Notes: a model not told the origin generated them from the letters alone. 64,000 nt of DNA from a bacterium (GCA_024228115.1 JAAETT010000177.1:689-64688); one strand, 5' to 3'. Shown: positions 58,150 through 63,943, numbered from the stretch's first letter. Program-made: numbers and translations.

Positions 58150-59340
58150 TCAACGGTCGTCGGTCGCCAGCGACCGCACCTCGACCTCAAAGGATCGCTG
58201 CTCGCGGGCCGACGCGCCCTCATGCCGCCGTGCGAACGCGCGAGCCCGATCCCGCACCGGCGCGGCCCACGACGCCTCGAGTGCCTTCGCGAAGTCGCCA
58301 CGCCGCGCGTCGACCACGACCCCCGCCCCGAGGGACTCGACAGCGCTCGCCGTGTACTGCTGCTCTCGGAACCAGGGAGCCACCAGTTGCGGGACGCCCG
58401 CGCGCAGCGTCTGCAGGACGCTTCCGTGAGAGCCGTTCGACACGAACAAGTCGCACGCCTCCGCCAGACCGCGCAGGTCGACGAGAGGGTCGACGAAACG
58501 CAGGGTCTCCCCGCTCACTCTCGCTCGCTCCGGTGCGGGGATCCCGCGTCCGTGCACGAGAACGGGGACGCCGGCGTCGCGGAGGCTTGCGAGGAATTCG
58601 CCTCGGCGCGGAAAAGGCGCCAGATACGCGAAGATCCTAGGCCCATCCGCGGACGGCCAGGGCGGGAGCGCCGCGCCCGGGACGCCTCCCACTCCGTAAT
58701 ACGACTCGTCAGGGCGTGGACCGAAGGGGTCGAGCTCGGGCACGGTACACAGCCACGAGCGGGCGCCGTCGTGGAGATCGGACAGCGCGCGGAGCGGCGG
58801 GATCGCAAGTGCGTCCGCGGCTGCGTTCACGACGGAGCGAACGCGCTCCTCGTCATGCTGGATCTTCTCTGTCCGCGCTGCGTCGACCTTGACGCCGGGA
58901 AGAACGCCCCAAGGCGACGCCGGCGGGGGGACAAAGAGACCCGGCCCCAAGACGGCGCGGCGGACGGGGAGCCCTCGGCTCGCCAGTAGCGCGGTAGGGC
59001 TGTGGTCACAGACGACGAGGTCGGGCCGAAACCCATCCAGAATGCTCCGCCACGCGGACAGTCGCGTCGTCAGCGAATCCTCGTCGTCGAAGCCGGCGGC
59101 GGCCAGCAGGTGCGCAAAGCAGAGGAACTCACCAGGCGGCGCCAAGGAAGGATGGTGTCGGAGCGGCGCCTGGTAGAATTGGACGGACAGATCGCCGAAA
59201 CAACGTGTCGCGTCATCCAGTTCGCGAAGCGCCACCGCGACGACGTTCTCCGGACTCGCCAGAATGCGGGCAACGCGTTCCAGATTGCGCAGATGCGCGA
59301 GCTGCGCGCCGAGCTCCCAGACCAACAAGACGCGCGCCAC
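58150..59340 (-). CDS. GT-B fold glycosyltransferase, GT1/MGT-like (396 aa from GTG 59340)
   Basis: GTG 59340 is preceded by GGAGG 6 nt upstream and gives MARVLLVWELGAQLAHL, a typical GT1 N-terminus. The C-terminal nucleotide-sugar motif is SNGSHGSVLQTLRAGVPQLVAPWFREQQYTASAVESLGAG. The track ORF extends to 59463 with an Arg-rich, implausible leader. Confidence 0.7.
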   Translation of the reverse strand: MARVLLVWELGAQLAHLRNLERVARILASPENVVAVALRELDDATRCFGDLSVQFYQAPLRHHPSLAPPGEFLCFAHLLAAAGFDDEDSLTTRLSAWRSILDGFRPDLVVCDHSPTALLASRGLPVRRAVLGPGLFVPPPASPWGVLPGVKVDAARTEKIQHDEERVRSVVNAAADALAIPPLRALSDLHDGARSWLCTVPELDPFGPRPDESYYGVGGVPGAALPPWPSADGPRIFAYLAPFPRRGEFLASLRDAGVPVLVHGRGIPAPERARVSGETLRFVDPLVDLRGLAEACDLFVSNGSHGSVLQTLRAGVPQLVAPWFREQQYTASAVESLGAGVVVDARRGDFAKALEASWAAPVRDRARAFARRHEGASAREQRSFEVEVRSLATDDR

Positions 59341-59633
59341 GCAGCCCCTCCAAAGAAGGCGCCTCACGATAGCAGACCTGCCAACGCGCGGACGCCAGAA
59401 GCCCCTCCCCGGCCGAGGTGGACTGACTAGGGCCTCGCGGCCGGTCCACCTAGAGATCGACATCGCCTATGCAGCAAGACCCGTCGTCAAGAGCCGGGAA
59501 CGGGTTGCGGGCCCGTGCGAACCAGCTCCCGGCTTCGCGGTTGAGCCGAGTGCCGAGTTCCTGCATCCATGACACGCGCGCCCTCCGACCGCACTCGGGC
59601 GCAGCAGGCCCAGGCACGCGAACGCCCCGTGGA

Positions 59634-60449
59634 TCAGTCACAGACGGGCAACTGCTCCGACACATAGGACTCGATGTGCGGCCCGAAGCCGTCGGCGACG
59701 CAGTGCGTGAAGTCGCCGAGACAGTCGGACTCCGTCAGAAGCCGCCGAGCGCCCACGAGGCCGTCGGCCGGAATCCCGACCGCTTCGTATGCGACAATGT
59801 CGGCCAGGTCGTCTCCGTAGCCGTGAGTCAGGACCACCCCCTCGTCGATCAGCGACTGCATGACTTCGATCTTGAAGTCGATGATTTCCACGGGGAAGAT
59901 GAACGTCGGCGACGTGATCACCTCATCGGGCGTCAGCCCGTTCCAGTCGATCCATAGTTCGGTCACCCAACGAACGAACTCGGGCGTTGCGAACGTGATG
60001 ATGTCCGTGAGGTCGAACAGGCTCAAGGCAGGCGCACACACATCCTCGCAGATCCGCTTCGTGCAGTTCCCGGACAGATCCCACCAGACGCACGCGCAGA
60101 TCTCCTGACACAGGGGCCAGTCGAAGAAGTCCGCGACGTCGACCGCCGAGATCCCCCCGAAACCGCTCAGGTCTCCGACCCATCGGCCGGTGAGCACGAT
60201 GACCTCGTAGCCGAGCCCCTGATAGGCCTCGATCAGCTCCGCGGTCCCGTCCCTGAGCGCCCACGGTGCGATCAGGTCGTCGGTCATCGTGCCGTCCAAG
60301 TCGACGATCACTGCGCGTCGCTCGTCCGTGCACGTCGGGCCGGACCCCTCAGCACCGGGCTCGCAACTCATCGCTGACAGCACGAGCGCGAGCGCACCCA
60401 GCACCAAAGTCCTCCCGATCGGCTTCCCTACCATGACTGACTTCCTCAT
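59634..60449 (-). CDS. HAD-superfamily phosphatase-like lipoprotein with a Cys-rich insert (271 aa)
   Basis: ATG 60449 with AGGAG 8 nt upstream. Signal plus lipobox-like LVLSAMSC. HAD motif I VIVDLDGTMTDD, motif II VIVLTGR, motif IV GYGDDLADIVAY. Paralogous to CDS 61978..62556, with an extra CQEICACVWWDLSGNCTKRICEDVCAP segment. Confidence 0.7.
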   Translation of the reverse strand: MRKSVMVGKPIGRTLVLGALALVLSAMSCEPGAEGSGPTCTDERRAVIVDLDGTMTDDLIAPWALRDGTAELIEAYQGLGYEVIVLTGRWVGDLSGFGGISAVDVADFFDWPLCQEICACVWWDLSGNCTKRICEDVCAPALSLFDLTDIITFATPEFVRWVTELWIDWNGLTPDEVITSPTFIFPVEIIDFKIEVMQSLIDEGVVLTHGYGDDLADIVAYEAVGIPADGLVGARRLLTESDCLGDFTHCVADGFGPHIESYVSEQLPVCD

Positions 60450-60773
60450 GACTGATCTCCTGCCTGGGACCGCGAAGCGAGTCCGGCAACATGTTCGAGT
60501 GGCAAGGGAAGTAGCACCCTAACGCGCTGCGTCAACGCGTGTCACGGGATCCAACGCGCTTTGTCACGAACTGCTCAGCCAGGACGCTCCGAATCCTCCC
60601 CCTCCCCAACCCAAATGGGGGAGGGAACAAATAGGGATGGAAGTCCGAAGTTGGGGATGGGAGTCGGGCCACGGTGCGGACCCCGACCTACTACCACGTC
60701 GCGCCCGACGAGCCCCCGCGATCGAGCGATGCCCGACCCGCACCCGGCGCATCGCACCAGACCACGGGGCGAA

Positions 60774-62651: not shown

Positions 62652-62771
62652 CCTCGGGGCGGGGCCGGCGCGCGGCCCGTGCTCAGCGTCGCGTCGATGG
62701 GGTGCTTGCAGGCTCGGGGTCCGGGGCTCCGCTCCATTCCGCGCGGTCCGCGCGCCGGCCCCGCCCCGAGG
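62652..62771. repeat. Perfect 24-bp inverted repeat with a 72-nt spacer
   Basis: cctcggggcggggccggcgcgcgg at 62652-62675 is the exact reverse complement of 62748-62771. It lies just downstream of the IS5-like transposase stop (62784). Confidence 0.8.
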
Positions 62772-62783
62772 TCCTCAGGAGGT

Positions 62784-63176
62784 TCACGGGGAAGCCAGGA
62801 GGTTGCGGATCCGAACCAGGTTGAACGCGGCGGCCGTGAACGTGAAGGTCCAGTCGACGCGTGGCTGCCCACGGTGACGCGTCTTCCGTAAGAGTCCGAC
62901 CGTCTTCATCCACCCGAAGACCTCCTCGACGATCTTTCGGCGACGCTGGCTGACGGCGTAGCCCTCGTGACGCGTCGTCCGTCCGTCGATCCGGCTCTTT
63001 CGATTCGTCGTATTCTGTGCGACGTGGGGCGTGACGGCGAGGTCGCGGCACCCGTCGACGAAGCCGAGCTGGTCGAAGCCACGATCTCCCGCGGCGGTCA
63101 CCTGATGGCCACCTGGAACCTCTTCCAGCATCTTCCTGGGCTGAAAGCTCTTGTGGCTTGCCCACGCCTCGATCAA
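62784..63176 (-). mobile_element. IS5/IS4-superfamily (DDE_Tnp_1-type) transposase, C-terminal fragment only
   Basis: AAGDRGFD...VTPHVAQNTTNRKSRIDGRTTRHEGYAVSQRRRKIVEEVFGWMKTVGLLRKTRHRGQPRVDWTFTFTAAAFNLVRIRNL matches the conserved C-terminal third of this transposase group. The N-terminal two-thirds are absent. Confidence 0.75.
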
Positions 63177-63943
63177 CGTCCCACCGCATCCTGAATGCGG
63201 CCTGCGACCGAGGTCGCTGCAGCGATGTTGTCGCTGCGCCCGACGTACCTCGGCGTGATGCCTGGGTTCGAGATGCCTGCGAACAGGACGTGCTCCGCAC
63301 CCGCCGCATGCAGTGACATCACGGCATCGAGGATCGCGTCTGCCGAGCTCTCGATCGCCCGGCTGAGGTCGACCCCTTGCGCACCGGCCTGCACCAATGT
63401 GTGGACGTCGTTGCCGCCCATATGAATCACGTGCAGGCTCCCCGGGTCGGCACTGCCGCCAACATCGGACAGGTACCGACCAACCTGCTCACCGAGATTG
63501 AGAAGGTCGACACCCAGAAGAGGCAACAGGCTCTGACCGAAGTCGCGAAGCACATCCGGAAGGTTCTGGAACGGCGGGAATGTGTCGAACAGAATCGGTT
63601 GATCCGCAGCCGTCGTCCCGCCATAGGAGTAGTTGTCTCCGCCAAACTCCCTGGATGTCGCAACCTGTCCCTCGAGTTCGATCGAGACGTAGTCTGCCGC
63701 GTTGTAGTAGTTGGTGAAACGATTCTGCCAGTAGCCATCTTCAGGAGGTGTCAGGTTCACGTCCACGAACCCGAAGGACGCGTCATAGCCGAGTTCTCGG
63801 AGCAGGTGCGGTGTCGCGCCGGAATCGGTGATGCTATCGCCGAAGGTCACGAGATTCGTGACGCTCGCGGGCAGAGCAGCCACGGGCGCTGCCAGAAGAC
63901 AAACAACGACGATGCACCGAGTAGCGTTCCGTCTAAACAGCAA
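63173..63943 (-). pseudogene. SGNH/GDSL hydrolase (lipase/esterase), probably C-terminally truncated at the IS5-like junction
   Basis: TTG 63943 with GGAGAA upstream. Signal peptide MLFRRNATRCIVVVCLLAAPVAA. Block I FGDSITDSG, block II YSYGG and block III HMGGND are present. The block V DxxH motif is missing. The ORF ends 3 nt inside the IS fragment ORF. Confidence 0.6.

Follow-up and report, generated by a model that had tools for sequence, protein, structure and literature searches.

Predicted Exported HAD Proteins of the LNS2/Lipin Type Flank a Family I.1 Lipase Gene in a Mosaic Bacterial Region

Results

Gene Content of the Patch

The sequence under study is a 64,000-nt stretch of bacterial DNA (GCA_024228115.1, JAAETT010000177.1:689-64688; hereafter the window, meaning the whole stretch), which derives from a metagenome-assembled genome (MAG) at NCBI (locus tags GY937_09145/09155) and has a GC content of about 67%. 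Near its right end, two genes encoding small proteins of the HAD superfamily, here called HAD1 and HAD2, flank a triacylglycerol lipase gene, in the company of a GDSL/SGNH lipase gene and of insertion sequence (IS) remnants (table 1). The gene layout of the 57.4-64 kb interval was read from the open reading frame (ORF) listing together with codon-position GC, and export signals of the window proteins were judged by eye on the N-terminal sequences. A first-pass annotation had described this patch as a coherent set of secreted, lipid-attacking enzymes, composed of a family-I lipase, two HAD lipoproteins, and an SGNH esterase lying among IS remnants. All of these components were present, and the interpretation built on them stood in part: the HAD proteins proved to be of the LNS2 type, whereas the set did not prove to be a conserved unit.

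Classification of HAD1 and HAD2

Both HAD proteins scored above the gathering threshold (27.7 bits) of the Pfam profile PF24694 (LNS2_PITM1-3), HAD2 with 75.7 bits over profile positions 1-122 of 124 and HAD1 with 37.2 bits in two stretches parted by an insertion particular to this protein. In a phmmer search of the PDB, HAD2 matched the LNS2 domain of Nir2 (9jtz) at 3.4e-9. A family profile built from a 24-member alignment of short forms and run against the same database placed Nir2 LNS2 first (3.2e-22) and the Tetrahymena lipin Pah2 next (3.5e-10), with the T4 PNK phosphatase (~3e-6) and the class B/C acid phosphatases (5e-4 to 5e-3) in lower ranks. The predicted structure gave the same order. 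An alignment-based AlphaFold2 model of HAD2, with a predicted local distance difference test (pLDDT) score of 94.2, was used in place of a discarded single-sequence model (pLDDT 42.7), and its Foldseek comparison with the PDB returned Nir2 as the best match (4e-12; 9jzp_A, query-normalized template modeling score 0.69, 28% identity), followed by the Tt Pah2 lipin (1e-7). The first 22 matches were all Nir2 C-terminal domains or lipin/Pah proteins, and neither class B/C enzymes nor PchP were found among the top 50.

Two further profiles remained below their cutoffs, namely PF08235 (lipin LNS2; 32.3 bits), against which HAD1 reached 16.9 bits and HAD2 was not listed at E<=0.1, and PF03767 (Acid_phosphat_B; 27 bits), against which HAD2 and HAD1 reached 22.9 and 16.2 bits. 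No model fitted HAD1 or HAD2 in the NCBIfam scan. With sequence, profile, and predicted fold all placing Nir2 LNS2 and lipin/Pah first, and with no HMM search assigning the proteins confidently to a non-lipid phosphatase subfamily, the assignment of the HAD lipoproteins to the LNS2/lipin type, proposed earlier from their motifs, is supported.

Active-Site Residues, Export Signals, and the HAD1 Insertion

The motif layout on which the earlier proposal relied (DxDGT / T-x-R / K / GDxxxD) is a real feature of the family and was seen throughout the 24-member alignment. In HAD2 it comprises D39, D41, and T43, then T76 and R78, then K117, and finally G137, D138, and D142; HAD1 carries the same catalytic set in the motifs DLDGT, LTGR, FK, and GDDLAD. 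The columns of D39, D41, G42, T43, R78, K117, G137, D142, C167, G170, and C175 were invariant in the 24 short forms, D138 was nearly so, and T76 was replaced by Ser in some members. A study of yeast Pah1 gives D398, D400, T443, R445, K496, G529, N530, and D534 as essential residues and describes R445, the motif-II arginine, as conserved in Pah1 and its orthologs (PMC12357310). Their equivalents in HAD2 are D39, D41, T76, R78, K117, G137, D138, and D142, with D138 standing where Pah1 has N530, and every residue that the study names as essential has a counterpart in both HAD2 and HAD1, including the motif-II arginine, which is lipin-specific.

The comparison with Nir2 is of a different kind. Nir2 binds phosphatidate (PA) through S1025, T1065, K1103, K1126, and D1127 (PMC12582312), and its alignment with HAD2 shows that Ser replaces the nucleophile and that the first Asp of motif IV is missing. 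Since these catalytic positions are degenerate in Nir2 and kept in the bacterial proteins, we predict that the latter are catalytically active and do not serve as sensors. It is very improbable that the HADs are noncatalytic phosphatidate binders that tether to or sense PA-rich membranes in the manner of Nir2 LNS2: their closest solved relative does bind the PA phosphate through equivalents of the HAD motifs, with no reported catalysis (PMC12582312), but the nucleophile, the acid/base residue, and both Mg-binding Asp residues, all degenerate in Nir2, vary rarely or not at all across the bacterial family.

Concerning localization, HAD2 has a canonical lipobox (LLTG/C), and the signal peptide of HAD1 ends in ...LVLSAMS/C, which we take to fit the looser PROSITE-type lipoprotein rule. 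A signal peptide is evident in most aligned family members, and many of these have a Cys at the matching position. The C-terminal Cys pair (C167-C175 in HAD2), invariant in the 24 members and conserved in HAD1 as well, fits an oxidizing compartment. From these features we infer that both proteins are exported. At 27% identity (alignment A3), HAD1 and HAD2 are old paralogs and not the outcome of a local duplication. HAD1 is further distinguished by a Cys-rich insertion of ~60-70 residues (7 Cys) immediately after motif II, which is the site of C2-type caps in other HADs; the insertion is common to a metagenomic relative (P0035, 32% identity) and suggests a distinct subfamily, in which it may form a lid or membrane-contact element.

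Exported HADs of comparable size, among them the class C acid phosphatases, which are lipoproteins too, offer another model. The window proteins could be general periplasmic or outer-surface acid or phospho-headgroup phosphatases that scavenge phosphate from soluble phosphoesters, as class B/C acid phosphatases do or as Pseudomonas aeruginosa PchP does after PlcH. The subthreshold PF03767 matches, the appearance of AphA and class C phosphatases in the profile search, the RefSeq name "HAD family acid phosphatase" of one relative, and the nearby phospholipase C (PLC)-like domains, which would free phospho-headgroups, are consistent with such a role. We nevertheless regard it as rather unlikely, with LNS2 models and structures ahead by at least 12 orders of magnitude, class B/C enzymes and PchP missing from the top 50 fold matches, and no Pho-type phosphate-scavenging families among the top neighbor families of the loci described below. 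In addition, the motif-II arginine that the Pah1 study describes as conserved among orthologs (PMC12357310) is invariant here.

Family Size and Long Forms

A word-indexed homolog search with HAD2 recovered HAD2 alone, and an exact look-up of the HAD2 product gave no record. When 1.84 billion representative proteins were searched exhaustively, 443 matched at E<=1e-3, of which 97 reached E<=1e-10. The family occurs in two forms, a short one of ~190 aa that bears a signal peptide or lipobox, to which HAD2 belongs, and a long one of 330-450 aa in which a PITM beta-sandwich (PF24695), seen in these long-form relatives only, precedes the LNS2 domain (PF24694). The long form of Pseudoalteromonas passes the PF08235 cutoff with 36.2 bits and has a lipin-type motif IV (GNxxxD).

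The Lipase and Its Missing Foldase

The lipase encoded between the two HAD genes matched P. aeruginosa LipA over its full length (1EX9; 5e-70, residues 57-333). The catalytic Ser (GHSQGG), Asp, and His, both Ca-site Asp residues, and the disulfide Cys pair were all in register, the segments SDG and NHFD being aligned as well, and the N-terminal signal peptide begins MSLGSRWIVLALALLTLPLVAA. By this homology the protein is a family I.1 enzyme, in agreement with the earlier call of a family-I triacylglycerol lipase. Its six nearest relatives (61-67% identity) all conserve the order GntR/aminotransferase, lipA, Lif (PF03280), and GH3, and no HAD, SGNH, or glycosyltransferase neighbors were found beside them. 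A tblastn search of the window with five Lif queries detected no foldase gene (no match better than E 0.047); given that all six relatives carry Lif, the window lipase is therefore a displaced copy, and its activity, if foldase-dependent, would need a foldase encoded elsewhere.

Downstream of the lipase, at the position that Lif holds in the relatives, sits HAD1. The idea that HAD1 substitutes for the foldase was rejected, as the protein is a plain LNS2 paralog with an insertion. Lipase and HAD1 are separated by 324 bp and HAD2 is divergently oriented, an arrangement that gives no indication of co-transcription. The hairpin in the lipase-HAD1 spacer was no better than in shuffled sequences (z = -1.37), a search for sigma-70-like promoters found none, and terminator-like matches were near background; no operon is proposed.

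Genomic Neighborhoods of Family Members

The contextual analysis covered 75 family loci, 62 from genomes and 13 from metagenomes. Homologs of the window SGNH, glycosyltransferase, 1293-aa, or PEP-CTERM proteins occurred near none of the 75, and a family-I lipase lay nearby in a single Pseudoalteromonas lineage. The contexts of the nearest relatives are unrelated to the patch, with ruvCAB/dnaK for HAD1, TetR/G6PD for HAD2, and other neighbors again for the SGNH gene. The top neighbor families at the 62 genome loci, Abhydrolase_1 and PLDc_2, had three members each, from about two lineages. In this synteny comparison the gene set was kept together in no relative examined, and the notion of a conserved unit is not supported. 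The claim that the genes cohere in function beyond chance fared less uniformly, since the set is unconserved and partly decayed whereas pairwise linkage of family members to lipid-related genes recurs elsewhere.

Three other lineages exhibit such linkage. Pseudoalteromonas peptidolytica, P. maricaloris, and P. piscicida share a same-strand row of three genes, which encode a long-form LNS2-HAD (a beta-sandwich and LNS2 protein of 334-355 aa with a predicted export signal), a family I.1 lipase, and Lif; this adjacency is kept across species whose Lif proteins share only 57% identity. Two related gammaproteobacterial MAGs carry a short-form LNS2-HAD gene among several phospholipase D (PLD)-family paralogs and a cardiolipin synthase gene (cls); because PLD makes phosphatidate, these neighbors count as context for a phosphatidate-acting HAD. 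Lastly, on plasmid pN447-1 of Bacillus sp. N447-1, three genes for HBL/NHE pore-forming toxins are immediately followed, in the same orientation, by the gene for the long form WP_242808381.1, the relative that RefSeq names as an acid phosphatase. Three linked lineages among ~60 are suggestive of a membrane- or lipid-attack role, and this recurrence makes a functional link between the HADs and the window lipase plausible. As a side observation, the HAD gene of P. piscicida is not listed in the incomplete table of PLSDB, which holds two features for a 1.3-Mb record.

The same neighborhoods bear on whether the adjacency in the window is coincidental, that is, produced by IS rearrangement, with the HADs serving the envelope lipid homeostasis of their own cell and unlinked to the lipase, SGNH, and PLC-like proteins. 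We consider this somewhat unlikely. It accommodates the lack of conservation of the set in any relative, the rearrangement marked by the truncation of two IS elements and of the SGNH gene, the loss of the Lif neighbor, and the usual occurrence of the family as a singleton in varied contexts. It accounts less readily for two divergent paralogs of a rare family (443 of 1.84 billion proteins) flanking one lipase, for the independent HAD-lipA-lif adjacency of Pseudoalteromonas, maintained at the Lif divergence given above, and for the recurrence of the same theme in the PLD and pore-forming-toxin neighbors of other lineages.

Decay and Composition of the Patch

The description of the patch as IS-scarred was borne out by both transposase genes, the IS66 gene retaining its C-terminal half alone and the IS5 fragment lacking the N-terminal two thirds. 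The IS5 fragment abuts the SGNH ORF, itself truncated, as seen in the junction sequence. This ORF matches PF00657 and has blocks I-III (GDS, GG, GGND), which agrees with the earlier SGNH/GDSL esterase call, but it ends 21 residues past the last aligned block. Its homologs (314-339 aa) run ~85-100 residues further and include FFDxxHPT, the motif of the catalytic Asp/His; the four homologs that were aligned also carry a PEP-CTERM-like VPEP sequence at their C-terminus. The window ORF lacks both this tail and block V (DxxH), and the gene, which stands for one of the four claimed enzymes and is cut before its catalytic Asp/His block, is likely a pseudogene.

A compositional check proposed along with the first-pass annotation gave a GC content of 0.64-0.66 in the 56-64 kb interval versus 0.66-0.70 elsewhere, a third-codon-position GC (GC3) of 0.72-0.85 versus 0.86, and a tetranucleotide correlation (r) of 0.92-0.93 versus ~0.98, the sole comparator being one giant gene. 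The deviation is mild and a single-gene comparator makes for a weak test, so that it was not used as a sign of foreign origin. We read the patch as a mosaic accessory region that IS activity has assembled and partly broken.

A GT1-like glycosyltransferase ORF, which the first-pass annotation left unmentioned, occupies the first 1.3 kb of the patch and lies outside the lipid-hydrolase set. Its match in the Pfam/NCBIfam scan is weak and confined to the C-terminal domain. The ORF abuts the truncated IS66 gene.

Proposed Function of the HAD Proteins

On balance, and with modest confidence, we read HAD1 and HAD2 as Mg2+-dependent phosphomonoesterases from the LNS2 (lipin/Nir2) branch of the HAD superfamily that are exported and probably lipid-anchored; they probably act on phosphatidate, and the mosaic patch that encodes them is not a conserved operon. 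Under the mechanism envisaged from sequence, the Sec pathway would export the proteins, the lipobox Cys would be acylated, and the capless Rossmann-like domain would sit at a membrane or lipid surface. Following the aspartyl-phosphate mechanism of HADs, Asp39 of HAD2 would attack the phosphate of a lipid phosphate with a small headgroup, most likely phosphatidate or lysophosphatidate, and Asp41 would serve as general acid/base, with Thr76, Arg78, and Lys117 holding the phosphate and Asp138 and Asp142 holding Mg2+. The products would be diacylglycerol and phosphate, and the neighboring secreted lipase could deacylate the diacylglycerol. The homology, the intact active site, the fold, and the export signals in the sequence are the observed parts of this proposal; the substrate, and likewise any coupling with the lipase, would follow from them and from the context, in which two anciently diverged paralogs flank the lipase.

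Several observations weigh against this reading. The Pfam census of 111 immediate neighbors of the 62 genome loci revealed no dominant partner. With the window left out as the discovery case, one lipase-adjoining lineage among ~75 loci is only suggestive, against a rough chance expectation of ~0.05-0.1. The window lipase has no adjacent Lif, unlike that of all six nearest relatives, and may be inactive without it; the lipase-HAD1 gap and the divergent HAD2 likewise offer no support for joint expression. The short forms have neither the Ig-like domain nor the amphipathic helix by which lipins bind membranes, the RefSeq label of one relative is a generic acid phosphatase name, and our literature search yielded no biochemical data on any bacterial member of the family. 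Finally, the window encodes no PLD that would make phosphatidate, and its PLC-like matches are weak and would give diacylglycerol directly.

This last point also loosens the pathway put forward in the first-pass annotation, which covers phospholipid headgroup cleavage, with two Zn-PLC-like domains to the left of the patch, together with phosphatidate or phosphoester hydrolysis and acyl-ester hydrolysis. Both PLC-like domains exist; their PF00882 matches are weak, one falling under the cutoff of 26.8 bits, and do not separate Zn-PLC from the related P1/S1 nucleases. As PLC yields diacylglycerol and a phospho-headgroup, it would not feed a phosphatidate phosphatase. What retains value from the earlier interpretation is the motif-based call on the HADs, which was right; the supposed "coherent gene set" is a mosaic, idiosyncratic and in partial decay.

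A wider extension appears distinctly unlikely to us, namely that the exported LNS2 proteins, short and long, constitute the first extracellular lipin-type phosphatidate phosphatases, used together with lipases, PLDs, or toxins against foreign membranes. Under this extension, lipolytic, predatory, and toxigenic bacteria may harvest phosphate and acyl chains by their means, and the proteins may represent the active counterpart, possibly the evolutionary source, of the catalytically dead beta-sandwich and LNS2 module of animal Nir/PITPNM proteins.

Comparison with Known Systems and Significance

To our knowledge, the Mg2+-dependent phosphatidate phosphatases of the lipin/LNS2 type have been studied as cytosolic eukaryotic enzymes, and the known bacterial phosphatidate phosphatases belong to the unrelated PAP2 family. 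Our literature search returned nothing on bacterial or secreted LNS2/lipin-like enzymes. The window HADs share with lipin, Pah1, and Tetrahymena Pah2 (PF08235; 6TZY, 7LHK) the capless HAD fold and the motifs DxDGT, T/S-x-R, K, and G-[N/D]-xxx-D (PMC12357310). The long bacterial forms come closer still, with an N-terminal beta-sandwich and scores above the PF08235 cutoff. Lipins, however, are cytosolic, eukaryotic, recruited through an amphipathic helix, and regulated by phosphorylation, whereas the window HADs, of 194 and 271 aa, are predicted to be exported lipoproteins and have a conserved Cys pair and GDxxxD in place of GNxxxD. Neither the lipin Ig-like (N-Lip/C-Lip) domain nor an N-terminal amphipathic helix was found in them, the signal peptide or lipobox passing directly into the HAD domain.

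The C-terminal module of Nir2/PITPNM1-3 (PF24695 and PF24694; 9JTZ) is the closest system by sequence and fold, and the long bacterial forms are built of the same two domains. The Nir2 module senses PA but is catalytically degenerate, its motif I reading S-I-D-G-S and its motif IV G-xxKD (PMC12582312), whereas the bacterial proteins retain all catalytic residues and are predicted to be exported. Class B (AphA) and class C (e(P4)-type) acid phosphatases (PF03767) resemble the window proteins as exported or lipoprotein HADs of similar size. Their motif I is DxDET in place of DxDGT, and they are remote, at 22.9 bits (below cutoff) and E values of 5e-4 to 5e-3 versus 3.2e-22 for Nir2. With respect to the LipA-LipH pair of P. 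aeruginosa, the window lipase aligns over its entire length, and the relatives and the Pseudoalteromonas loci keep a lipA-lif pair; the window differs in having no Lif within 64 kb and an LNS2-HAD gene downstream instead.

Should the proposed activity hold, an exported bacterial branch would add the conversion of phosphatidate into diacylglycerol and phosphate to extracellular phospholipid breakdown, would provide small soluble models (~170 residues) for the LNS2 domains of lipin and Nir2, and would bear on the origin of the PA-sensing module of Nir/PITPNM proteins. The family has few members, none of them characterized as far as we could find, and is not covered by an NCBIfam model; it is testable in culturable Pseudoalteromonas. 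The window locus itself, by comparison, is an IS-scarred mosaic with one likely pseudogene and an orphaned lipase, and represents no conserved lipid-degradation operon.

Flanking Genes and the Giant ORF

Table 1. Features of the window and of the compared loci. Coordinates refer to the sequence named in the first column.
Sequence	Feature	Coordinates	Strand	Evidence or remark
Window	Giant ORF	2-50269	-	At least 16,756 codons, uninterrupted; continues past the window edge
Window	Zn-dependent PLC-like domain, giant-ORF residues 313-431 (from ORF start 50269)	48977-49333	-	PF00882, 27.6-28.1 bits (cutoff 26.8), profile positions 1-99/167; weak match
Window	Small exported protein with PEP-CTERM-type tail	50723-51403	-	By eye, PVPEPT...RRRRV
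Window	1293-aa exported protein	51581-55462	-	PF00882, 19-22 bits, under the 26.8 cutoff
Window	PLC-like domain of the 1293-aa protein	~54959-55231		PF00882, as in the row above
Window	Small exported protein with PEP-CTERM-type tail	56467-57306	-	PF07589, 28.6 bits
Window	IS66-family transposase fragment, C-terminal half	57439-58107	-	NF033517 model positions 197-383/387; PF03050, 1e-46
Window	GT1-like glycosyltransferase ORF, 437 aa	58150-59463	-	PF06722, 31.6 bits (cutoff 31.7); TIGR01426, 28 bits
Window	HAD1, 271-aa LNS2-type paralog, predicted exported	59634-60449	-	PF24694, 37.2 bits
Window	Cys-rich insertion of HAD1, residues ~90-160	59940-60180		Right after motif II
Window	Family I.1 triacylglycerol lipase (by homology), 336-aa ORF	60774-61784	-	1EX9, 5e-70
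Window	Lipase, NCBI coding sequence, 313 aa	60774-61715		
Window	HAD2, 194-aa predicted lipoprotein, short-form LNS2-type HAD	61972-62556	+	PF24694, 75.7 bits, 4e-21
Window	HAD2 per NCBI, 192 aa	start 61978		MCP5056875.1
Window	IS5-family transposase, C-terminal third	62784-63176	-	NF033581 positions 186-285/285; PF13751/PF01609
Window	GDSL/SGNH lipase gene, 3'-truncated	63173-63943	-	PF00657, 36.6 bits
L028 (Pseudoalteromonas)	HAD-lipA-lif row	9500-12508		
L035 (Pseudoalteromonas)	HAD-lipA-lif row	9437-12508		
L084 (Pseudoalteromonas)	HAD-lipA-lif row	~5000-8000		
L010 (gammaproteobacterial MAG)	Short-form LNS2-HAD surroundings with three ~650-aa PLD paralogs and cls	6084-9852 and 18757-20514		
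L012 (gammaproteobacterial MAG)	Short-form LNS2-HAD surroundings with two ~650-aa PLD paralogs, a 501-aa PLD lipoprotein form, and cls	5605-15218		
L085 (Bacillus sp. N447-1, pN447-1)	Three HBL/NHE toxin genes and WP_242808381.1	2078-6873		
Window	C-terminal tail of the 1293-aa protein	51581-51680		Arg-rich
L082	C-terminal tail of P0035	8850-8945		Arg-rich

To the left of the patch, the giant ORF has a GC content of 0.70/0.48/0.86 at the three codon positions, which is coding-like. It carries a LEPR-XLL N-terminal domain (NF012209, 28.8 bits, ~50129-50173), FG-GAP repeats at ~36-41.5 kb, and RTX nonapeptide and hexapeptide repeats under 2.3 kb. No Pfam match at E<1e-4 was obtained in ~2.3-35 kb (~33 kb) or in 44.3-47.3 kb, and no long tandem DNA repeats were found along the ORF.

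The 1293-aa protein has the mature N-terminus W-K-P-Y-T-H, and an N-terminal Trp also begins mature Zn-PLC and P1 nucleases. A FIMAH-like domain lies near its C-terminus, and no sequence relative was found in the PDB. Its C-terminal tail resembles that of P0035, an exported protein unrelated to it; in both, C-G-[IL]-G-[IF]-E-L-V is followed by a hydrophobic stretch and then by an Arg-rich end (...VCGIGIELVLLVPLVRRLRLRRRNR in the 1293-aa protein and ...RCGLGFELVFVLPVIAALRRRRSA in P0035). No NCBIfam sorting-signal model matched these tails, which look like a C-terminal sorting or anchor signal. PEP-CTERM tails, for their part, occur in two window proteins and in the SGNH homologs, so an exosortase system is probably present in this organism.

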